Both the position numbers and the translations under genes were made by a program. From Deltaproteobacteria bacterium (GTDB lineage Bacteria > Myxococcota_A > Polyangia > Polyangiales > JADZFZ01): DNA of 64,000 nt. The stretch lies in NCBI GenBank assembly GCA_020854145.1, contig JADZFZ010001118.1:14067-78066 (forward strand), written 5' to 3'. This document shows, piece by piece, positions 24,875 to 48,751 of this stretch; the first letter of the stretch is position 1; the number at the start of each line of letters is the position of its first letter. The notes beneath the pieces are model-generated. The model did no database searches. It worked only from the letters and a program-made list of their open reading frames with translations, and was not told the origin of the DNA.

Positions 24875-24896
24875 CGCGTGCAGACGTCTGCACGCG
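24875..24896. repeat. Palindrome copy 2: CGCGTGCAGACGTCTGCACGCG (intergenic, head / neck junction)
   Basis: Perfect 22-bp palindrome between stop 24907 and ATG 24857. Confidence 0.95.
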
Positions 24897-28347: not shown

Positions 28348-29898
28348 TCAGGGAGTGACCCGGCCAGGCGTGCTGCCGTCGCTGGGCTCCGACGTCCCGG
28401 CGTCGGGTGATTGCGGACGTTCTGCCGCGCCCGTAGGAGCGACGGGCGGCGCGGGCGGATTGCGGGCCACCTCGAGACGCCGTTTCATGTCGAGCTCCCG
28501 GAGCTCGTGCCGAGCGTGGCGATCGATTGTCGTCTCCGGACTCCAGCCGTGATCGGTGAACCGGGACAGCGCGACCTCGTGCGGGGAGAGAATCTGTGCC
28601 TGGACGTACAGGGCATCTCTCTTCGCGATCGCCTCTTGCTCTGCCGCCCTGTCCTTCGGCGTACCCGTCCAGAGCGGGGGAAACGCGATCGACAGGCGCC
28701 GCGGCACACGGCCACCGGTCGGCCCATCTTGGGCGAGCAGGAGAATCGAGATTGCTCGCTTGATCGGTCGGCGCAGCCGTTGCCGTTGGTACTGTCCGAC
28801 GGTGTCGTACCAGACGGTTTGATCGCTCGTACCCGTAGCGTCGAACCCCGTCGGCGATTGACCCATGAGCACAGTCACCGGCATCTCGAATGCCGCCGCG
28901 AGCCGGAGCCAGGTCTTGTCGGCGAGCTTGTCGGCGCCGCTCATCTCCGAGCTGCGGCGCTCGAAGCTCTCATGCTCCTTGTCGACCGCGATGGCCCGAT
29001 TCGACGCCCGATTCTTGTCGAGGAACTCGAGCCGCTTCTGCACGACGGCCTCCTGGCCGCTGCGGATGAGCTCGACGAGGTCTTTCAGGCCGAAGACGCC
29101 CTGCGAGAAGTCGTGCATCAGGTGGCAGATCGATTGCCAGTTTGCGCTGCACGAAACGAGGGTGGCGTACACCCTCACGAGAACCGAGTCGTCCCATCCA
29201 CCGTTCTGCCAGAAGCGGAAACGCGTCGTCGCAGCACCACCGAAGACGACGAGCCTCGACTCGTGAATGACGCCGACCCGACCTTCCTCCTCGGCAATCG
29301 GATGGTGCCAGTAGGTCTCGGCCTGTCCGGCCTTCTGGTGAGGGGCGCGGTACCGCGACCTGACCGTGAACGAGCGCCGGTCATATGCGTGGATCCCGTC
29401 GATCGCGCGGATGCTCGACTCATCGAGCGGTTCGTGTGGATAGCGGCCGTCGTCGCAGTCGAAGTACAGAATCCCGCCGCCGAACAATCGACCCCATCCG
29501 GCACAATCGACGAACTTCGTATCGAGGTCCCACTCGTCGAGGTCCTCGATGATGTCACCGGCGAGCTCCTGTGCCTCCCCCGGATCGTCCTCGCTCTTCG
29601 CCGTGCTCGGGCGCACGACAACGTTGTAACCGAGCTTGAAGGCCTCTTTGACGATGGCGCCGACCCCACGATGCGCGAAGTCGTCCTCGGAGTAGAGCGC
29701 ATCGAGCTGGTAATCGGTGAGATAGAGGCCCGGCGCGAACTCGTGATAGGTCGCCTTGTCCCGAGACGTGCCGAGGCCGGTGACGAGGTTCTGCCAGCCG
29801 TCGCGGCGCGACGGATGCATCGACGCCGCGTAAGCCTCGCCGGGGCGCAGCCGGGCCGCATCCTCGACGAGTCGCAGGCTGGCTCTCGACATGCTCAA
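28348..29898 (-). CDS. Portal protein (DUF1073-type)
   Basis: 516 aa. Translation RRDGWQNLVTGLGTSRDKATY...LDALYSEDDFAHRGVGAIV. Follows terL with a 4-nt overlap. Confidence 0.85.
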   Translation of the reverse strand: MSMSRASLRLVEDAARLRPGEAYAASMHPSRRDGWQNLVTGLGTSRDKATYHEFAPGLYLTDYQLDALYSEDDFAHRGVGAIVKEAFKLGYNVVVRPSTAKSEDDPGEAQELAGDIIEDLDEWDLDTKFVDCAGWGRLFGGGILYFDCDDGRYPHEPLDESSIRAIDGIHAYDRRSFTVRSRYRAPHQKAGQAETYWHHPIAEEEGRVGVIHESRLVVFGGAATTRFRFWQNGGWDDSVLVRVYATLVSCSANWQSICHLMHDFSQGVFGLKDLVELIRSGQEAVVQKRLEFLDKNRASNRAIAVDKEHESFERRSSEMSGADKLADKTWLRLAAAFEMPVTVLMGQSPTGFDATGTSDQTVWYDTVGQYQRQRLRRPIKRAISILLLAQDGPTGGRVPRRLSIAFPPLWTGTPKDRAAEQEAIAKRDALYVQAQILSPHEVALSRFTDHGWSPETTIDRHARHELRELDMKRRLEVARNPPAPPVAPTGAAERPQSPDAGTSEPSDGSTPGRVTP

Positions 29899-31355
29899 CC
29901 TGCTTTCCTACCAGTCAGGCGCTCGACGAACTCGACATAGCGAGAGATGTCCGCCGGCGCGAGCTCGACGATGCCATGACATGCAGAGTCGACGCGGTCG
30001 TCGAGCTTCAGCCGCGGCCAGCCCACATGCTCGTCGATGAAGGCCTGATTCCAGGATCCGCGCAGCAGGTAGCCGTTGCCCGCTTGCCAGATTGCCGACG
30101 ACGAATGGGCGCGGGTGGCCTTGTTTCCATTCTCGACAGCTACGAATCCCGGAACCTTCCGCCGCATCGTCTGCACGCACGCCGCGCCGTTGGCCTGCCG
30201 CTCGACTGCCGACTTGAGAACCTTCGGCCACTTCTGTCGGGCGCGCGCCATTCGCACGAGCGTCTCATCGAATGTCGAGCGGCCCCAATCCACGTCAACG
30301 ACGTAGATGTCCGACTCGATGAGAACGAGAGTGGTGCCGACAACGGGATCCCGCTTGTCCGGATCGTCTTTGTCGCCGAAGTTGCAGTCCCACGCCTGGA
30401 TCCACACCCCCGGCTTGTTGGGCAGCTCATCGACGATCTTGAACCAGGCGCGCTGGAAGACTCCCCCGCTCTTTGCCTGAGGTCTCTGCTGTAGCTGAGC
30501 GGCGACGTTCGCCGGCGTGCGTAGCTTCCGCTTCAGGCGCTCGACAGCCTCTCGATCGAGACGCTCGGGACAGAGCAGCTCATAGGGGTCGCGCCGCCAG
30601 TCCTCGCCCCAGGGCGTCGCGCTGTGCTCCTCCGGGTCGTACTCCATCGGCAGCACGAGCTGCACGGTGTCTTCGTCTTCGATGACGACGCCCGTCAGGT
30701 CCATCTCATGGACGCGCTGTTGGACGATCACCGAAGTGACGTGCGAGGGCTCGCCGCGCGTGCCCCACGTGCCCGACCACGCATCCGCGGTCGCCTCTAG
30801 CGCCTTCTTGGTGACTCCCTTGGTCGCGTCCGCTTCCTTCGGCGGATTGGGGTCGTCAGCGACCTTGAAGTCTGGGTGCCAGCCGGTGACCTGACCGACC
30901 ATGGTCGTTGCGAAGCGCAACCCCCCGGCCGTCGTCGAGTACTCCTGCCCGCTCTCGGTCGTGTCGTGATCCAGCCGCGCAGACCAGCGAGCTCGGTACC
31001 ACTCCGAGCTAACGAGCTTGTGTGTGCGTTTCGAGTCGCGTCGGCTGAGACGCTCGCTGTAACTGCCGAATATCCACTTGGCGGATGGGTCGATCTCGGC
31101 CCAATGCCAGGCCGTCCACGCCCTGCAGATCAGCGACGACTTGCCGAGACCCGGGGGGATGTTGATGACGAGCGTCCGGCCCCGGAGCTCGCCCCGGGAA
31201 GCGGCCTCGAGGTGCCGGCAGATCAGCTCGAGGTGTCGCGCTCCGACGAAGGGCCGACCTTGCTCGATGATCGGCCAACACAGCCGGAGGAACGCGTAGA
31301 GCCCGCCGCGCCGGACCTCGTCGCGGTCGAGCTCGACTTGACTCGGCAGTCGCAC
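29895..31355 (-). CDS. terL: Terminase large subunit
   Basis: 486 aa. Walker A-like VINIPPGLGKSS and a nuclease-type C-terminal half. Position between the terS-like and portal genes. Confidence 0.9.
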   Translation of the reverse strand: MRLPSQVELDRDEVRRGGLYAFLRLCWPIIEQGRPFVGARHLELICRHLEAASRGELRGRTLVINIPPGLGKSSLICRAWTAWHWAEIDPSAKWIFGSYSERLSRRDSKRTHKLVSSEWYRARWSARLDHDTTESGQEYSTTAGGLRFATTMVGQVTGWHPDFKVADDPNPPKEADATKGVTKKALEATADAWSGTWGTRGEPSHVTSVIVQQRVHEMDLTGVVIEDEDTVQLVLPMEYDPEEHSATPWGEDWRRDPYELLCPERLDREAVERLKRKLRTPANVAAQLQQRPQAKSGGVFQRAWFKIVDELPNKPGVWIQAWDCNFGDKDDPDKRDPVVGTTLVLIESDIYVVDVDWGRSTFDETLVRMARARQKWPKVLKSAVERQANGAACVQTMRRKVPGFVAVENGNKATRAHSSSAIWQAGNGYLLRGSWNQAFIDEHVGWPRLKLDDRVDSACHGIVELAPADISRYVEFVERLTGRKAG

Positions 31356-31356
31356 G

Positions 31357-32013
31357 TCACGCCACCTGCGGCTTCGCTATCCGCGCCTTCGCGCAAAGCG
31401 CTCGGAGCGTCGCGGCTTCCTCGTCGGTCAGACGAGAGAGGTCGTACTCGACGTGCGCGTCGGCTATCTCTCGCTCGCGACGCTGGCGCGCGACGTCGGT
31501 CGCCGTCGCTGCGATCTTCTGCAGCTCGTTTGCCGTGTACGCGCCCTCGCGGCCGAGCTCGCGGCGAAGTGTCGTCTCGACGACCTCGAGCAGGTCACCT
31601 GTGCAGACGTCTGCACGCACGCGCGTGGCGTCGTCATTCGCTGCGCTCGCGGAAGTCAGCCCCGCAGACCCGCTCGCTTCGTCGGGGGTACTAACCGTAG
31701 TGGTGGCCCCCCCCGCAGGTCCGCCGTGCAGCGGGATGACGGCCGCCAGCGTCTGTTGCGGGGACCTCGGGCGGCCGTCCTCCGCGTCGATCCTCGCCTG
31801 CCAGCGCCATCGCAGCGACATCCGCTTCAGTGTCGTGATCGAGCGGCCGTCGCGAACGAGCCGCTTCAGCGATCGCGAGCTCGGCGGCAGTGCCGCGTAC
31901 TCCCGAAACGCGTCCCACGCGTCGCCGGGCTCCGACGGATCGCGCGTGGTCACTGGTACCAGCGTCCCTGGTACTGGTACCTGGTACCGGAATCGGCTCG
32001 GTACCAGAAACAC
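31357..32013 (-). CDS. Terminase small subunit-like DNA-binding protein; start uncertain (GTG 32013 or GTG 31953)
   Basis: Lies immediately upstream of terL. HTH-like SLKRLVRDGRSITTLKRMSLRWRWQARI. The first 20 codons of the long form are translated GGTACC repeats. Confidence 0.55.
   Translation of the reverse strand: MFLVPSRFRYQVPVPGTLVPVTTRDPSEPGDAWDAFREYAALPPSSRSLKRLVRDGRSITTLKRMSLRWRWQARIDAEDGRPRSPQQTLAAVIPLHGGPAGGATTTVSTPDEASGSAGLTSASAANDDATRVRADVCTGDLLEVVETTLRRELGREGAYTANELQKIAATATDVARQRREREIADAHVEYDLSRLTDEEAATLRALCAKARIAKPQVA
31601..31616. repeat. Palindrome copy 3: GTGCAGACGTCTGCAC (inside the terS-like gene)
   Basis: Perfect 16-bp palindrome. Translated RADVCT. Confidence 0.95.
31953..32005. 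repeat. Cluster of five GGTAC(C) motifs, including the 10-bp palindrome CTGGTACCAG
   Basis: TGGTACC at 31954, 31975 and 31982; TGGTAC at 31969; GGTACC at 32000. All read directly from the sequence. Confidence 0.95.
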
Positions 32014-32659
32014 GCTTGATCCACGGCACGAGCACTATTCGAGGAAGGCATTTTGATTGTCATGTCGATCACTTCCGACATGCCCCGTGTGCCACTCTAC
32101 CTATCGTGCACCGTGGTCGCTCCCCGCGCGATGGGCCACGCGGGGAGCACGGTATCGATGCAGCGTCTCGCGACAGCGGCACCCGTGCTCTGCATCGGGG
32201 TAACAGCCCGACCGGGCTGGTGCTCGTCCTCAAGGAGCTCGCGTCGATGTCCGATCTCCCGCTCCATGGGAGCTGCCCACCCTGCGGGGCCGACAGTCCG
32301 GACTTTGTAGGTAGCGGCGCCGAGAGTCGCACTCGCAGCCCGAGGGTATGAACCTCAGTGGGGCACTCGCCCCTGCACCGCAGTAGTCCCCAGCGTCGAG
32401 CGGGCCGTGGGATGCACGGACACCGCTCGACGCCAGGAGGGCCGAACCGAACCGCTCACGAAGGAGGTTGCGAGGAGGGCACCGAGCTGACGCCCACGTC
32501 TCGCGAGAATGAGCAGGTGATAGCCCTGTTCCGGGTGCGCGCAACTGGCCCGGACGCGCGGAACCCCGTGGAACCGGGCAATGCCCCGTGGTTCCCCGTG
32601 GTTCGGCGCGGAAATTCGACTGTCAGAGAGCATCGGGGCCCTGTACCGGGCTGCCCGAC
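32014..32659 (-). other. ~650-bp non-coding, hairpin-rich leader between the regulator genes and terS (candidate structured RNA / pac region)
   Basis: No protein-like ORF in any frame. Stems include 32061..32082, 32119..32148 (10 bp), 32156..32197 (8 bp) and 32394..32432 (10+5 bp). Confidence 0.5.
32564..32603. repeat. Three direct CCCCGTGG(A/T)(A/T)C repeats at 20- and 10-bp spacing
   Basis: CCCCGTGG occurs at 32564, 32584 and 32594, just downstream of the 32660..32920 HTH gene. Confidence 0.9.
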
Positions 32660-32920
32660 CTACCGATTCTGCTCGTGGTGCGTCGTCAGCCAGGCCGCCA
32701 GCTCGGTGCTGTAGGCCACGGCCATGCGGCTATCGCCTTCACGATAGACCGGAAGCGGGTGCTTTCGCTTCCTCGATTGCTTCACGCACCACCACTCGGA
32801 ACGCCCGAGGAACGCCGCGATTGCCGGCCAGCCCTTCAGGTCGCGCACGCCGACGTCGCGGCCGACGATGAGCCGCCGAGGTGCGCCGGCGTCCGGCGTG
32901 GGCTGCTCGGGCGCGGCCAT
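32660..32920 (-). CDS. Small HTH DNA-binding protein (86 aa)
   Basis: ATGA overlap with the upstream stop. Translation LKGWPAIAAFLGRSEWWCVKQSRKRKHPLPVYREGDSRMAVAYSTELAAWL (excisionase/MerR-like HTH pattern). Confidence 0.55.
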   Translation of the reverse strand: MAAPEQPTPDAGAPRRLIVGRDVGVRDLKGWPAIAAFLGRSEWWCVKQSRKRKHPLPVYREGDSRMAVAYSTELAAWLTTHHEQNR

Positions 32921-33684
32921 CACTCGCCGTGCTCCCGCAGCTCGTCGGCACGAGCCCGGATTGCCTGCAGCAGCCCCGTTCGCGGGTCTGGCATCGGCAG
33001 CAGGTCGCGCGCGGCGAGCTCGACGACGACGACGCGTCGGCCATGCTCGACGACGGCATGCACGGCGTGCTCTGCGAGGCCGTGCACGGCCGCGAGCTCG
33101 CGCAGCTTCACCACACGTCGATAGCTGCGCTTCGTGACCTCGGGCAGCCCGCAGACGGCCTCGACGAGCAGCTCGACGCACTTCTCGTAGCGCAGTCCCT
33201 GACGGGCTTCGTAGGTCGGCGCGGCCGGTCGGTACGCCTCGAGGAGCGCACGCTCGATGGGTGTGCTGGACATGCCACGCACGAGCGCCGTCTCGGTCCC
33301 GTCGCTCCGGTGCGATCCGCAACCGACGGTACCGCCCTCGAGCGCGGCGAGCTGACGACCGAGCGCGCTCGCAGAGGGGTCGTAGCTCCGACGCGCGGCG
33401 AACGTCAGGAGGGCAGCGTGCAGCGACGGCCACCCACGCTCGACGCCCTGACAGCGCGGCCCCCTCCACTCACCGAGGACCTCGTCGCAGAGCCCCTCGA
33501 GGACCTCGCGCCACAGGGCAGCCTGGCGCGGCGCCAGGGGCTCGTGCAGCGACCGCGGCCACCGCAGATCGTCGGGCTCCGGAAAGCGGTCGCGGGCGCG
33601 CGGAGTGCCGCGCGCCTTCCGCTTCGCCGGCTTCCTGGGCGCCTCGATCCCGAGGACGTCGAGCAGCTCTTCTTGCGTCGGCAT
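32920..33684 (-). CDS. Hypothetical protein (254 aa), possible late-gene regulator
   Basis: ATG 33684 overlaps the primase stop. C-terminal HTH-like RSYRRVVKLRELAAVHGLAEHAVHAVVEHG. Confidence 0.5.
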   Translation of the reverse strand: MPTQEELLDVLGIEAPRKPAKRKARGTPRARDRFPEPDDLRWPRSLHEPLAPRQAALWREVLEGLCDEVLGEWRGPRCQGVERGWPSLHAALLTFAARRSYDPSASALGRQLAALEGGTVGCGSHRSDGTETALVRGMSSTPIERALLEAYRPAAPTYEARQGLRYEKCVELLVEAVCGLPEVTKRSYRRVVKLRELAAVHGLAEHAVHAVVEHGRRVVVVELAARDLLPMPDPRTGLLQAIRARADELREHGE

Positions 33685-36600
33685 CAGCGGCCCTCCTTCG
33701 GTGGCTCGGCGAGCACGGCGAGCACGAGCTCGGCGCGGTGCGTCGCGATGTGTGCGCGCAGCTCGGCGTCGACGACGCCCTCGACGACCAAGCACTTGTC
33801 ACGGTCGCGCACCCAGACGCGGAGCCCGAGCACCCGCAGCTCCTCGAGGAGCACGGCACCGTTGCCGACTTCCTCGGGATCCTCTTCGGCCTCGCCGCGC
33901 CCGAAGAAGTGCTCCCCGCTTTGCGGGGTTGCGGGTGTTTGCGGAGTCTGTTCCCCCTCGCGTGCGCGTGTGTCTATCTCAGTCTGCGCCACTGCCGCTG
34001 GCAGTGGCCCTGATTGAATCTCTCGCGCGTGGGGGTTTGGAGACTCCGCAAGACCCCGCACCCCCGCAATCGTCCCTCCGGTGCCGGCCGCCCTGACGTT
34101 CTCCTCGGTCGCCTCGACGACCTGCCACTGCAGGATCTTCTCGTGGCTCTCGTAGACCGAGGAAAGGACAAGACCGGCAACAACCCGTCCGCGGAGCTTC
34201 TTGAGCGCCTGGCCGACGCGCGTCGAGCTCGGGACCTGGCCACTCTTGAGCCGACACAGCTCCTCGACGCTCTCTCGCAGGCCCGCGAAGTCCGCCGGCG
34301 GCGACCCTTCGGGGAAGAGGACCTCGATGGCGCGCTTCGCGCTGATGGCCGGCTCCTTGAGCCGTTCCTGCAGGCGCGCCCAACCCTCGAAGAGGCGTGC
34401 ATGCGTGGCCCCGCGCGAATCGGCCGAGGCCCGTAGACCTGGGCGCGTCTTGCCAGGGTCGTCGAGACCAGCCCACACAACCGCTTCGCGTACGAGCGCG
34501 CCCCAATCCTCGTACGTGTTCCACCCATCGAGCCCTTGCGACGGGCGTCCAGCGACGTGGTAGCCGCGGAGGATGGTGAGCGCGGCGCAGAGCAGCTCGG
34601 CTCTCTTGGCGCGCACGTAGGGCATCAGGGGGAAGTGCTTGAAGTCCGTGCGCTCCTCGGGTCGCTCCACCTTCGACAGCAGGCGCACGTGGCAGACACG
34701 GCGGTGCATGTCGTCGCTGATCGAGACGTTGTTTCCGGTCGCGTACCAGGTCACGACGAGCGGGCCCGTCCAGCTCGTGTTGCCGCCGAGGACTCGACCC
34801 CCGTACGCGGTTGCCGTGAGGGCGTTCTCGAAGCTGGCGCCCCCCATCGTCGTGTTGACGTTGTCGAGCAGGATCACCCGTTCGCCCGCCATGGCCCACG
34901 AGAGGATCCGCTTGTCCATCTCGTCGTCCTCTTCCGCGAACTTCGAGCGCGCCGGCGGGCGCGCGAGCGCGATGAGACCGACGACGTCGGCGAGCAGGCC
35001 CTTGCCCGTGCCCGGCGTAGTTGCGTCGATGAGGAACAGCGGCGAAGGCCCCCGAAACGCGAATCGTGCGATCGGCGTCAGGACACTGGCGACCCACGCG
35101 GCCAGGTGCGCGGAGCTCTCGAAGATGAAGTCGCACACGACCTCGCAGAGCAGCTCGACGGCCGCGAGGACCTGCGCGCGCGTCGGCGCCTCCGGTACCG
35201 GAGGCATCCGATCGTCGAGCAGGAACAGCCCCGTGGTGGCGTCGTAGCCCTTGGTCGCGAGCACGCTCCCATCGGGGCGCAGCACGGGACACTCGACGAT
35301 CGCCTCGAGGTGCCGGAGGTTGGGCCAGTCTCCGCGCGCCATGATCTCCTGCACGGTCCACTCGGGCACGTGCGCGGCGCGGTCCCATACCTCGCCATCG
35401 CGCGTCATGCGCTCCTCGACGAACCTGGCGACGCTCGAGAGGATCTCGCGCACGCGGGCCTGCGGAGCAGCGACGATCGACGGCGCGTCAGGGTCGCGAA
35501 TGAGCCCGCGCGGGAGCTTGCGGGGCTTGTGGATCGTGACGAGCGCCGAGCCACGCCGAAACAGTGGACGCGCTCTAACGAGCGCGCCGAGGGCTTCTTC
35601 GGTGACTTCGTCCTCTTCCGTTCGCACGACGATGCGGGTGCGTTCATCGGGCGCGGGCCCGTTTCCGTCGCCCGACGAGCTCGGCGGCGGCGCACCAGTG
35701 CCACCGCTCGCGCCCTGGCTGCCCGCTGGCTCGCGACCCTTTCCTGCGCGCGTGCGCAGCGATACGGGAGCGCGACGCGGCTGCTTCATTCCCGCCTCGA
35801 GCGCGCGGCCGAGCAGGTCCTCGAGCTTCTTCGCGGGCCACGCGCCCTGGCGATTCGCAGCGTCGCGCAGCGTCGCCCGCGCTTCCTCGAGATCGATCTC
35901 GTCGCCGGCGACGAGCTGTCCGATCGCGAACGCTTGCTCGTTCACCGTGTCATTGCGCGTTCCCTCATCGGCTCGCACGACGATCGCGAAGGCACGCTCG
36001 AGCGCGCCGCGGCCGTACTTCGTCGTGCGCTCGGACGCCGCTGGCGTGGTGCGAGCTCGCGGTGTGTCGGCGCCGACGCCGACCATCAGATCGTACAGCC
36101 AGCGCGGTAGCTCCGCGATCTCGGCCTCGACCGTCCACGCGTACCGGCCGCCGCTCTTGTGCACCGACGGCGCAACGACGATCTGCCCACCCTGCGCGCG
36201 CGCGTCGAGACCCCGCCCGATCTTGCCGGCGCGATTCTTCACGTGCGGCAGCTCGAGCGCCTCGGGACATCGGAAGATCCGGTGCTCGCCCCCATCGGCG
36301 CGGCCGCTCCGCGAGGTCAGCGTGACCGGCAACGGGCCGTGCGCCGCCTCGAGCGCGGCGAGGCTCTCGCGTCCGGGCGCACCGTCGACGTCGAGCGCCA
36401 CGAGACGCTCGTCGCCGCCCATCGCCATCCCGACGTTGCTGCCTGGCCATCGCGCCCACCACGCGCGGACGGTCTTCCGATCGCGTGACGCGTGCTTCTG
36501 CCACTCCTTGATCCGCGGATGCTTCCCCGCCGCGTCGTGCACCTTCTGATTGCACTGACAGCGCCCGGACGGCACGTTTGCAATCCCAAAGAGCGGCAAC

Positions 36601-37247
36601 ACGCGGAACCCGATGTGCGCGTAGTACTCGGCGGCCTTCGCGACCTCGAAGTCGTTCGCGCGGGTGATGCGGACCACGCAGGGCGCACCTGACCCGGGCC
36701 GGGCGGGTGACGGATTCGGTGACGGGTTCGCACCCCCGGAATCCGTCACCGGTGACGCATTCTCACCCTCGGGTGACGGATTCGCACCCCCAGATACCGT
36801 CACCGGTGACGCATTCTCACCCTCGGGTGACGGATTCGCACCCCCAGATACCGTCACCGGTGACGCATTCTCACCCTCGGGTGACGGATTCGCACCCCCG
36901 GATACCGTCACCGGTGACGCATTCGCACCCCCGGAATCCGTCACCGGTGACGCATTCTCACCCCCGGAATCCGTCACCGGTGACGCATTCTCACTCGGAC
37001 CCACGGAATCCGTCACCCGGAAGCGGATCCCCTGCCGGAGGGCGCCGTGCTTGGTACGCACCGGCGGGCCGACGACGACCGTAAGCGCGCGCGCGAGGGC
37101 GTTGTCGCTCAGCTCGACGCGGCCGTCCCAGCACCGCCACAGCGCGAGCAGGGCTGATGTCGAGACGCTCGACTCGGGGTCACGCTCGCAGCACTCGGCC
37201 ACGAATCGGGACACCACGACCTCGATGTCGTCGACGGAGCTCGACAT
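33684..37247 (-). CDS. Replicative primase-helicase: N-terminal small domain, repeat linker, PrimPol domain, P4/D5-type NTPase
   Basis: PrimPol-like GFRVLPLF...GKHPRIKEW...LVALDVDG...HRIFR...VVAPSVH. Walker A DATTPGTGKG. 1187 aa continuous. Confidence 0.85.
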   Translation of the reverse strand: MSSSVDDIEVVVSRFVAECCERDPESSVSTSALLALWRCWDGRVELSDNALARALTVVVGPPVRTKHGALRQGIRFRVTDSVGPSENASPVTDSGGENASPVTDSGGANASPVTVSGGANPSPEGENASPVTVSGGANPSPEGENASPVTVSGGANPSPEGENASPVTDSGGANPSPNPSPARPGSGAPCVVRITRANDFEVAKAAEYYAHIGFRVLPLFGIANVPSGRCQCNQKVHDAAGKHPRIKEWQKHASRDRKTVRAWWARWPGSNVGMAMGGDERLVALDVDGAPGRESLAALEAAHGPLPVTLTSRSGRADGGEHRIFRCPEALELPHVKNRAGKIGRGLDARAQGGQIVVAPSVHKSGGRYAWTVEAEIAELPRWLYDLMVGVGADTPRARTTPAASERTTKYGRGALERAFAIVVRADEGTRNDTVNEQAFAIGQLVAGDEIDLEEARATLRDAANRQGAWPAKKLEDLLGRALEAGMKQPRRAPVSLRTRAGKGREPAGSQGASGGTGAPPPSSSGDGNGPAPDERTRIVVRTEEDEVTEEALGALVRARPLFRRGSALVTIHKPRKLPRGLIRDPDAPSIVAAPQARVREILSSVARFVEERMTRDGEVWDRAAHVPEWTVQEIMARGDWPNLRHLEAIVECPVLRPDGSVLATKGYDATTGLFLLDDRMPPVPEAPTRAQVLAAVELLCEVVCDFIFESSAHLAAWVASVLTPIARFAFRGPSPLFLIDATTPGTGKGLLADVVGLIALARPPARSKFAEEDDEMDKRILSWAMAGERVILLDNVNTTMGGASFENALTATAYGGRVLGGNTSWTGPLVVTWYATGNNVSISDDMHRRVCHVRLLSKVERPEERTDFKHFPLMPYVRAKRAELLCAALTILRGYHVAGRPSQGLDGWNTYEDWGALVREAVVWAGLDDPGKTRPGLRASADSRGATHARLFEGWARLQERLKEPAISAKRAIEVLFPEGSPPADFAGLRESVEELCRLKSGQVPSSTRVGQALKKLRGRVVAGLVLSSVYESHEKILQWQVVEATEENVRAAGTGGTIAGVRGLAESPNPHAREIQSGPLPAAVAQTEIDTRAREGEQTPQTPATPQSGEHFFGRGEAEEDPEEVGNGAVLLEELRVLGLRVWVRDRDKCLVVEGVVDAELRAHIATHRAELVLAVLAEPPKEGR
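36706..37020. repeat. Nested tandem repeats (54-bp x3, then 33-bp units) inside the primase gene, each carrying the palindrome GTCACCGGTGAC
   Basis: GTCACCGGTGAC occurs at 36745, 36799, 36853, 36907, 36940 and 36973. In frame it encodes ENASPVT(D/V)SGGAN(A/P)SPEG repeats. Confidence 0.95.
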
Positions 37248-47241: not shown

Positions 47242-47711
47242 CCGCCGACCTCCCGCGGTGGCTCACGGCCGACGAGGTCGCGACGATGTTGCACTACCGG
47301 TCGCGCGCCGGCGTGCACATGGCCGTGAGGCGCGGCGAGCTCGTCGGCTATCGCCGCGGCCGCCGCGTGCTGTTCCTGCTCGAGGACGTCGATCGTATGC
47401 TCCGGGGCCGTCCGGTCGTGCGCCCCAGAGGAGAGGACTCCAATGGGCACCACGACGAAACCGAACCGACGAATCGCACCGGGTCTCTGGCAATTGGATA
47501 CGGAGAGGTGGCTCATTCGCGTCAAGGCGCGGAGCCGCAAGACGGGGAGAATCGGGGAGCGCCTCGAGCAGTTTCGGGGGACGCGAGCGGAGGCGATTGC
47601 CACGCGCGAGCAGTGGCGACTCGAGCTCGTCGGCGACGTCGTCCAGCGCGAGAGGCAGACGCTCGAAGCTGTCGCGAAATCGTGGCTGCAGCTCAAGATC
47701 GCACGCGGTGA
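47238..47711 (+). CDS. xis: Excisionase-like HTH protein; ORF tail overlaps int out of frame
   Basis: Translation WLTADEVATMLHYRSRAGVHMAVRRGELVGYRRGRRVLFLLEDVDRML. No stop until 47711, 269 nt into int. Confidence 0.6.
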   Translation: MTADLPRWLTADEVATMLHYRSRAGVHMAVRRGELVGYRRGRRVLFLLEDVDRMLRGRPVVRPRGEDSNGHHDETEPTNRTGSLAIGYGEVAHSRQGAEPQDGENRGAPRAVSGDASGGDCHARAVATRARRRRRPAREADARSCREIVAAAQDRTR

Positions 47712-48606
47712 TCTCGCGACGAGCACCGCCGACCGATACGCGCGCGCTCTCGACGATCACATCCTGCCCGCCCTCGGTGACGTCTTCCTCGAGGAGCTCA
47801 CGCGTGCGGATGTCGATCGATGGCTCGCCGGCGTCGGCCAGGAGCCGAGCACGTGCAATGGGTACCTGCGAGTACTTCGCTCCGTGCTCGAGGGCGCCGT
47901 CGCCGACGAGCTCGTGCCCGCAAACGTCGCGACGCGCGTCGCACCGCTGAAGGAACGCACGCGCGACGAGCCGAACGCGCTCACGGCCGACGAGCTCCGG
48001 CGCGTGCTCGAGCACTGGCGCGCGACGCGGCCGGAGCAGTATCCGCTCGTGCTCGCGCTCGCGCTCACGGGAGCGCGGTGGGGCGAGATCACGGCGCTGC
48101 GATGGAGCGACATCGACGCCGCGGCCGCGGAAGGCGCGCTGACGATCCGTCGCGCCCACCATCGCGGAGAGGTGAAGGAACCGAAGACGGGCGTGCGGCG
48201 CATCGTGCCCTTCCCTCGCGTGCTCGCGCGCGTCCTCGAGGAGCACCGCAAGCGGTGCCTCCGGGAGCAGCGACCGGGCTTCGAGGACGGTTGGGTGTTC
48301 ACCTCGAGCGAGGGGACGCTCCTCGACAATGGTCGATTGTCGAAGCCCTGGCGCGAGGTCCTCGGCGAGCTCGAGATCGCGAAGCGAGTCACCATGCACG
48401 GGCTCCGACACACGATGACCGACCTGCTGCGGCACGCGCGCGTCGACCAGGTGACCTCGGCCGCTCTCATCGGCCACACCACCGAGCAAATGCGGCGACG
48501 CTACTCCACCGTTCTGCCCGCCGAGGCGCGCGCTGCCGGCGACCAGGTCGTGAGAATGGCCGGGCTCGCGGGTGGGAGAATCGGTGGGAGCCGGCGACGG
48601 AAATGA
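47443..48606 (+). CDS. int: Tyrosine integrase
   Basis: GGAGAGGA RBS. Motifs ALALTGARWGEITALRWSDID, HGLRHTMTDLL and IGHTTEQMRRRY (R..HxxR..Y). Confidence 0.9.
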   Translation: MGTTTKPNRRIAPGLWQLDTERWLIRVKARSRKTGRIGERLEQFRGTRAEAIATREQWRLELVGDVVQRERQTLEAVAKSWLQLKIARGDLATSTADRYARALDDHILPALGDVFLEELTRADVDRWLAGVGQEPSTCNGYLRVLRSVLEGAVADELVPANVATRVAPLKERTRDEPNALTADELRRVLEHWRATRPEQYPLVLALALTGARWGEITALRWSDIDAAAAEGALTIRRAHHRGEVKEPKTGVRRIVPFPRVLARVLEEHRKRCLREQRPGFEDGWVFTSSEGTLLDNGRLSKPWREVLGELEIAKRVTMHGLRHTMTDLLRHARVDQVTSAALIGHTTEQMRRRYSTVLPAEARAAGDQVVRMAGLAGGRIGGSRRRK

Positions 48607-48648: not shown

Positions 48649-48666
48649 CCGGGGCGATCACGCCGG

Positions 48667-48732
48667 AGCGGGAGAAGGGATTTGAACCCTCGACTTCAAC
48701 CTTGGCAAGGTTGAGCCCGTTTCCACTGAGCA
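48667..48732 (-). pseudogene. tRNA-Gly(GCC) remnant lacking the 5' acceptor strand (att-site fragment)
   Basis: Minus strand reads D arm GCTC-AGTGGAAAC-GGGC, anticodon arm CAACC-TTGCCAA-GGTTG, T arm GAGGG-TTCAAAT-CCCTT and 3' acceptor CTCCCGC-T. The 7 nt 5' of the D arm (TGTAGAA) cannot pair. Confidence 0.7.
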
Positions 48733-48751
48733 CTTCTACACATTCTTGAAA

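Follow-up and report, generated by a model that had tools for sequence, protein, structure and literature searches.

A hairpin-rich non-coding gap upstream of prophage terminase genes as a candidate composite control region and packaging site

Directly upstream of the terminase genes of the prophage considered here lies a hairpin-rich gap in which no gene is found, and the locus raises the question of what such a gap is for. The gap occupies positions 31954-32659 (706 nt) of the window, i.e. the whole 64-kb stretch of DNA that was analysed, which has a GC content of ~70 % and whose proteins match a contig of 93,982 bp labelled 'MAG: Deltaproteobacteria bacterium'. An initial annotation had offered three candidate roles, namely a large structured phage RNA, an antitermination or riboregulatory leader, and a pac or cos region; among these, the cos/pac role is the best supported, for the part of the gap that is nearest to terS. 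The wider reading that is, on balance, favoured here is that the gap is a composite patchwork of DNA control sites and not a single RNA element, an arrangement whose general kind is known, within a phage lineage that is unstudied.

Limits and genomic setting of the gap

All of the genes around the gap lie on the minus strand. In the direction of transcription, the flanking region consists of a prim-pol/helicase gene (33684-37247, 1187 aa), an ORF of ~254 aa as counted from its homology-supported start (32920-33684), a gene for an 87-aa small protein that was taken from the ORF list (32660..32923), the gap itself, and then terS, terL and the portal gene. The terS product (31357..31953, 198 aa) matches the terminase small-subunit family phrog_6299 (E 1.6e-6), that of terL (29895-31355) matches phrog_38 (E 1.9e-70) and, among terminase families, Terminase_6C only, and the portal gene (28348-29898) matches PF06381 (E 7e-55). 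The integrase gene (47443-48606) abuts a tRNA-Gly gene (48665-48739), so that this is an integrated prophage; both lie 15 kb from the gap.

The lower limit of the gap had initially been placed at 32014. The true limit is 31954, because terS starts at the conserved GTG at 31953, as indicated by an alignment of terS with three close relatives and in agreement with the NCBI terS model of 198 aa. The same model and the same alignment rule out the GTG at 32013 as the terS start. The claim that the gap lacks a protein-like ORF has held up. Eight ORFs within the gap gave no Pfam or PHROG match better than E 0.02, no sustained GC3 frame signal runs through it, and no gene is called at its position in relatives, so that homologous phages carry no ordinary gene there and the non-coding claim stands. 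A blastn search of phage GenBank sequences with the gap returned no match.

Modules shared with related phages

Relatives were obtained by searching a set of 5.8 billion proteins with terL and then fetching the contigs that encode the matches, which yielded three related lineages. In the first (L005/L006), terL is 90 % identical to that of the window and the gap is 433 nt long; in the second (L008/L009 and L034), the values are 69 % and ~435 nt; and in the third (L010), they are 55 % and 267 nt. Searches with terS in IMG/VR, the 5.8-billion-protein set and JGI metagenomes recovered the window's own protein or nothing, and searches with terL in GTDB genomes recovered relatives at 25-32 % identity only, which were left out of the comparison. 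An E-INS-i alignment of the four lineages, combined with direct reading of the sequences, gives the following order on the minus strand: a conserved box, phased repeats, a promoter-like block, a hairpin, an insert that is found in the window only, the module AAATGCCTTCC-N20-GGATCA, and an array of CTGGTACCAG-type sites. Apart from the insert, this order is the same in the gaps of all relatives, and the blastn identity of the non-coding modules (70-75 %) compares with 67-76 % for the flanking genes. Neither the conserved box nor AAATGCCTTCC-N20-GGATCA gave anything but chance matches in pattern scans of IMG/VR, and these matches are located in unrelated or AT-rich coding DNA.

The conserved box, GCTCTCTGACAGTCGAATTT (32612..32631, minus strand), lies 28 nt past the stop codon of the small gene and is nearly identical in L005, L034 and L010; any other match to its 13-nt core, CTCTGACAGTCGA, in the window has at least two mismatches. 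The box has a TTGACA-like core, and no -10 element was read at the right spacing from it. It is followed by six phased units of 10-11 nt (32554..32614, minus strand), identified by repeat scans, for which the window's repeat unit is AACCACGGGG. Three of the six units carry CCACGGGG, which is CCCCGTGG on the plus strand, and the three copies of the latter that had been reported at 32564, 32584 and 32594 are indeed present. Relatives have between four and six units at the same place and with the same 10-nt period; the units read TTTGCACGG in L005, TTCCGCACGG in L034 and TTTCCGCGCG in L010, such that a CACGG-type core is common to them and the flanks differ. The window contains no second cluster of the repeat motif. 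As judged by eye, the spacings within the phased repeats do not fit a sigma-54 or ECF promoter.

Next in order is the promoter-like block (32495..32544, minus strand), in which the hexamers TTGCGC (32544-32539) and TATCAC (32522-32517) are separated by a 16-nt spacer and conservation extends to 32495. Its segment GGGCTATCACCYGCTCATYYTCGCGAGACGTG is identical to that of L005 at 30 of 32 positions and is partly kept in L034; the spacer between the hexamers varies between the window and L005, the hexamers themselves being kept. The hexamers were read by eye, and TTGCGC-N16-TATCAC is missed by the consensus promoter scan, because its -10 hexamer does not have a T at position 6. The block is a putative promoter, of which TATCAC would be a non-canonical '-10' element.

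Homologues of the 87-aa protein that is encoded next to these elements are found at the corresponding position in the relatives (62, 54 and 38 % identity). The protein matches no Pfam family and no PDB sequence. A profile search gathered 231 remote relatives, and ten that were sampled likewise fall in no Pfam family. In the AlphaFold2 model, whose mean pLDDT is 71, the core is helix-helix-hairpin-helix, and the best Foldseek matches of the model, all of them weak (E 0.5-1.7, TM ~0.6 on the target), are a chain of a viral packaging motor (7lwr), Xis proteins or excisionases, including Pukovnik Xis and RdfS, and the MerR-type protein CarH. On the basis of this model, the protein is probably a winged-helix DNA binder, and the 'HTH' label that its gene had been given thus finds weak backing at the level of fold but none from any sequence family. 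The protein is also the candidate binder of the phased repeats, a pairing that is suggested by the fact that a divergent protein adjoins a repeat whose sequence drifts. By the same reasoning, TerS pairs with the GGTACCA motif, since the TerS N-terminus is highly conserved and adjoins an invariant motif. A role for the small protein in excision is unlikely, because the integrase and tRNA-Gly genes are 15 kb away.

A GC-rich, two-tier hairpin (32388..32438, minus strand), in which an internal loop separates a lower stem of 11 bp from an upper stem of 5 bp, begins 48-56 nt past the conserved block in the window, L005 and L034. Its folding energy is -39.7 kcal/mol in the window (z -6.2), -40.2 kcal/mol in L005 (z -6.6) and -39.7 kcal/mol in L034 (z -5.3), and the three hairpins have the same two-tier shape with unrelated sequences; L010 has a weak hairpin only. 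This appears to be the sole element of the gap in which structure, not sequence, is under selection. No U-tract follows the hairpin in the window, L005, L034 or L010. None of the strong hairpins in the window, including the intergenic one at 24875-24896, has a U-tract either, and U-tract terminator motifs are fewer in 20 kb than in shuffled sequence, so that the lack of a U-tract counts but weakly against a role as terminator.

The insert and the question of a structured RNA

The window-only insert is ~300 nt long (32090..32387, with approximate limits) and is absent from L005, from L034 and L008 taken together, and from L010. It holds most of the stems on which the notion of a densely structured gap had been built, i.e. 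those at 32119-32148, 32156-32197, 32204-32219 and 32360-32373. Of the strong stems, the 10-bp one at 32119-32148 is confirmed (-31.7 kcal/mol, z -5.0) and is the one strong stem inside the insert, as is the one outside it at 32393-32433 (11+5 bp), whereas that at 32156-32197 (z -0.68) is no stronger than expected by chance. The 706 nt contain three perfect stems with a length of 9 bp or more, against about one per 1.7 kb across the window. In the same vein, the gap as a whole folds more stably than its shuffles (minus strand, z -3.35; plus strand, z -3.0; only 20 shuffles per strand), but its middle 330 nt (32066-32395), which contain most of the listed stems, do not (z -1.37 minus, -0.43 plus).

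These figures bear directly on the idea that the entire gap is one large structured non-coding RNA with a function of its own, which we regard as extremely improbable. The whole-gap z-scores, which range from -2.5 to -4.5 in the relatives, and the several strong local stems are what such an RNA would lead one to expect, but palindromic and inverted protein-binding repeats are by themselves enough to explain low z-scores. Moreover, the length of the gap varies from 267 to 706 nt, and its middle 300 nt are confined to the window and fold no better than shuffles. Within 31800-32900, Rfam gave nothing at the gathering threshold, and even at E<=10 the scan that had been proposed as a check produced no family match, only microRNA models far below their thresholds. 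RNAalifold supported no covariation in the conserved modules: the covariation term was +0.44 in the 5' module and -1.1 in the 3' one, where the pairs that it drew lie between invariant palindromic sites. The proposal of a large structured phage RNA is, accordingly, not supported. A different account of the insert takes it to be a decayed gene (an HNH endonuclease or a moron) or a small mobile element situated just inside the chromosome end. That it is an insertion relative to three lineages accords with this account, as does the occurrence of HNH genes at the same position in other cos phages, e.g. the IMG/VR family found in this work. Yet, none of its ORFs or frames has a Pfam or PHROG match, there is no GC3 frame signal, terminal inverted repeats are lacking, and no other copy occurs in the window or in any fetched locus, all of which leaves the account very unlikely.

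The terS-proximal module and the probable chromosome end

Beyond the insert, the module AAATGCCTTCC-N20-GGATCA (32017..32053, minus strand) is unique in the window. Both of its motifs and their spacing are kept in L005, and a degenerate form is present in L010; the spacing is 20 nt in the three lineages other than that of L008/L009 and L034. It is succeeded by an array of five palindromic sites of the CTGGTACCAG type (31953..32007), the last of which overlaps the terS start codon. Four of the sites, all of them within 31955-32005, contain GGTACC, and the remaining one, which lies between them, has a GTACC core. The array is the sole stretch of the 64 kb that contains at least four GTAC per 60 nt, and CTGGTACCAG with up to one mismatch clusters nowhere else in the window. 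As the strongest repeat feature of the locus, it was missing from the initial annotation, having fallen just outside the coordinates that had been assigned to the gap. Relatives have three or four sites, and the geometry relative to GGATCA is kept in all four lineages. Counted from the terS start codon, the sites of L008 are at -81, -64, -51 and -29; in L005, they are at -64, -51 and -29 with an extra one at -37, and GGAACC stands at the -81 position of L008. Compared with its relatives, the window has a 30-nt deletion next to the start codon. The CTGGTACCAG-type sites are candidate TerS-binding, i.e. cosB-like, sites.

The lineage of L008, L009 and L034 adds an observation of another kind. 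The L034 contig (SRR24928198), which carries the small gene, ends 18 nt past GCCTTCC, and the contigs L008 (SRR24928196) and L009 (SRR24928199), which carry terS-terL, begin exactly at GGATCA; three contigs are on record for each side of the break. Since the spacing is 20 nt in the other lineages, the end of L034 and the start of L008/L009 would be ~2 nt apart. The two ends have no overlap and no shared sequence, ~2 nt being unaccounted for, and, in both, homology to the window and L005 extends to the last base, with no foreign sequence. Homology to the last base makes a repeat, an insertion or a graph branch an unlikely cause of the break, as far as can be argued from how de Bruijn assemblies behave. 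A physical chromosome end, produced by a cos cut, is therefore probable at about 32022-32025 of the window, where the evidence consists of assembly contig ends from three samples of one relative lineage and an artefact of the assembly graph is possible. The candidate cut would precede the first GGTACC site by 15 nt and terS by ~70 nt. With a conserved module, a unique array and the contig ends of a relative all falling within it, the terS-proximal ~110 nt are supported as a cos/pac site, and it is to this portion of the gap that the earlier suggestion of a pac/cos region now applies.

Several observations temper this assignment. The conserved module could be a promoter or operator instead of a cut site, because the last GGTACC overlaps the start codon and the sole sigma-70-like match is located there. 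That match, ATGACA and AATAGT with an 18-nt spacer (32034..32063, minus strand), points at terS and is the only one on either strand between 20000 and 39999; given that its hexamers are not conserved in relatives, it would be either window-specific or a chance match. A search of metagenomes with the pattern of the GGTACC array gave >120 matches, none of which comes from relatives of the phage; most have a GC content of 38-46 % and little coding capacity and are probably eukaryotic repeats. Arrays of CTGGTACCAG are thus not diagnostic of packaging sites, as unrelated low-coding contigs carry them. HMM searches found no DNA-binding protein that is common to the phage and to an IMG/VR family of ~17 kb with the same arrays. 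Homology also does not predict the packaging mode, because, among characterized phages, the nearest terL is at most 34 % identical. The Terminase_6C family includes many headful (pac) packagers. Upon reading of the four aligned sequences, no conserved WATCAANNNNTTR-like IHF motif was seen; a possible IHF site at AATCAAAATG was set aside, as it is not conserved in relatives.

Combining these parts, the explanation that we favour, with modest confidence, is that the gap is a composite control region plus a packaging site, located where the right end of the phage chromosome meets the left. According to this explanation, the first ~170 nt past the small gene would most likely be the binding array of the small protein together with a late promoter. 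The hairpin that follows ~50 nt further on would most likely act on the transcript, either at the 3' end of early-operon RNA, as a terminator or an end structure, or as a barrier that has to be read through in late transcription, and the ~300-nt insert would be lineage-specific and have no conserved role. Within the last ~110 nt, i.e. the packaging site, TerS would bind the CTGGTACCAG repeats beside its gene and position TerL to cut ~15 nt upstream, near 32022-32025, thereby generating the ends of the virion chromosome. Of all this, the layout of the gap, the way in which it is conserved and the positions of the contig ends are observed; the pairing of proteins with sites, the promoter, the function of the hairpin and the kind of chromosome end are inferred.

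The main competing view is that the gap is a late-operon leader under processive antitermination, in which the small protein, working in the manner of AlpA or Q, loads onto RNA polymerase at the promoter-like block beside its binding repeats, the polymerase then reads through the hairpin and the window's extra stems into terS-terL-portal, and the GGTACC module serves as an operator, or belongs to the 5' UTR, and is not cos. In three lineages, the order of regulator, repeats, promoter-like block, hairpin 48-56 nt on, and late genes is what this view anticipates; AlpA is a member of the Xis/MerR class, which the predicted winged-helix fold resembles; and, with co-directional genes on both sides, the separation of early from late expression needs some logic of termination or antitermination. 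But, in sequence, the small protein resembles neither AlpA nor Q nor any Pfam family, the repeats are upstream of the -35-like hexamer, whereas the AlpA and Q elements sit between -35 and -10, no U-tract follows the hairpin, which is weak in L010, and the contig ends of the relative are left unexplained. We consider this view unlikely as an account of the gap, and it is partly compatible with the composite explanation and not exclusive of it. What survives of the earlier suggestion of an antitermination or riboregulatory leader is that such a role is possible for the hairpin at 32388-32438 alone, whose structure is kept and whose sequence is not. The gap might also contain a replication origin, made up of the phased repeats, the box and the hairpin, in which the repeats would be iterons bound by the upstream primase-helicase or its partner, with the packaging site adjoining. 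The prim-pol/helicase gene does lie ~1 kb upstream of the four to six direct repeats with 10-nt phasing, relatives with the common repeat core have homologous replication proteins (61 and 37 % identity), and other iteron-like arrays are nearby in L010. Nevertheless, the array has a GC content of 0.66-0.70 and no AT-rich unwinding stretch beyond AATTT, the motif does not cluster a second time in the window, and a position between a small DNA-binding gene and a promoter-like block fits a transcriptional role at least as well; an origin is thus given a very low probability. A mosaic test of origin versus late control is uninformative, because the replication genes, too, are homologous in the relatives.

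A more speculative reading, and one that we hold to be quite unlikely, is that the small protein, the phased CACGG repeats and the hairpin form an undescribed antitermination or attenuation switch that operates across the chromosome end into the packaging operon. Were it true, the switch would gate the packaging operon in a high-GC phage lineage, and it would do so by means of a protein family with >200 remote relatives and no Pfam model.

Significance and relation to known systems

The value of these results is mainly one of annotation, since they mark a probable chromosome end, candidate TerS sites and a putative boundary between early and late genes, and correct the terS start. They also illustrate that hairpins may abound in a gap that is no RNA gene but is made up of separate DNA sites and a lineage-specific insert. 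Further, two elements stand out, namely the hairpin that is kept in structure only and the uncharacterized small, predicted winged-helix family next to its phased repeats; the latter could reveal how late-gene switching occurs in such phages.

The probable packaging site invites comparison with cos of phage lambda, where cosB has three TerS-binding R sites (R3, R2 and R1) between cosN and the TerS gene; simple cosB types without an IHF site also exist (PMC4669245). As in lambda, the site here, of ~100-200 bp, immediately precedes the small-terminase gene, lies inside the integrated prophage, has repeated candidate TerS sites between the probable cut and terS, and would have to be crossed by late transcription. 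Unlike in lambda, there are 3-5 palindromes of 10 bp in place of 16-bp R sequences, with no sequence similarity between the two, no IHF-like site was seen, and TerL belongs to a different family, matching Terminase_6C only.

The other half of the gap is reminiscent of antitermination by AlpA and Q. The small winged-helix protein AlpA bypasses terminators ahead of its target operons and so offers a functional precedent for a regulator that sits beside a promoter with a terminator downstream, and the binding elements of both AlpA and Q lie between -35 and -10 (PMC7969949). The prophage resembles these systems in having a small regulator gene by a promoter-like block, followed by a strong hairpin ahead of an operon, and, in the case of AlpA, in the predicted winged-helix fold of the Xis/MerR class. 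It differs from them in that there is no detectable homology, the repeats form a phased array upstream of the -35-like hexamer, and the hairpin is without a U-tract; in addition, the system described here is known from sequence and a predicted fold. Finally, Xis-type winged-helix proteins use direct repeats with one-helical-turn phasing. The small protein and its surroundings are akin to them both in the fold matches and in the adjacent direct repeats, which are likewise phased at one helical turn, the difference being that the repeats of the prophage are not at an attachment site.

A palindromic array at the start of terS

The most striking repeat of the locus (window 31953-32007) consists of five closely packed palindromic sites of the CTGGTACCAG type; this array lies directly upstream of the small terminase subunit gene, terS, and overlaps its start codon. 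The array falls just beyond the non-coding gap (32014-32659) that the initial annotation had reported ahead of the terminase genes. The longest terS ORF (31357-32013) encodes 218 aa from a GTG at 32013, and extends past the conserved start at 31953. For the large subunit gene, terL (29895-31355), the public annotation gives only 335 aa, i.e. 69 % of the 486-aa ORF, whereas the protein is 481-487 aa long in relatives.

Other repeats, a hairpin and the integrase genes

In L010, a phage relative whose terL is 55 % identical, two inverted triple arrays of GCTGACGAT (positions 100-300) stand on either side of approximately 100 nt, upstream of the small winged-helix gene, and look like an operator or origin. 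Within the window, tandem 33/54-nt repeats with 95 % matches occupy 36718-36994, in the N-terminal part of the prim-pol/helicase gene, where they code for repeated GENASPVT(D/V)SGGANPSPE-like units. A perfect palindromic hairpin of 9 bp (CGCGTGCAGACGTCTGCACGCG) occurs at 24875-24896, in a 49-nt spacer after the gene following the capsid-region genes; this hairpin, too, lacks a U-tract, and it may be a terminator or an mRNA-stabilizing stem. Between 47443 and 50068 there are two tyrosine-integrase genes, and since one lies on each side of a tRNA-Gly (48665-48739), the arrangement suggests that two elements have integrated in tandem at the same tRNA-Gly.

Similar arrays in other contigs

Arrays of CTGGTACCAG in the form GGTACCAGTTTCTGTCTGGTACCAGATTCTGGTACCAG are present in >100 metagenome contigs (many of L045-L162, e.g. 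L068, L075, L134 and L152). Their GC content is 38-46 %, long ORFs are almost absent, and they resemble a family of eukaryotic repeats, not phage DNA. GGTACCA arrays far denser than that of the window were found in viral contigs of ~17 kb and 57-64 % GC, mostly ~63 % (L037-L042, L044, L046, L073, L080, L089, L090, L110 and L135). In one of these, L040, the arrays (355-580) are followed immediately by an HNH-endonuclease gene, a small ORF, terL (phrog_9) and the genes for portal and protease/capsid proteins. This ~17-kb family is unrelated to the window's phage, and in it neither the window's terS nor its small winged-helix protein has a detectable homologue. The GGTACCA motif that the two have in common may reflect convergence or a common binder.
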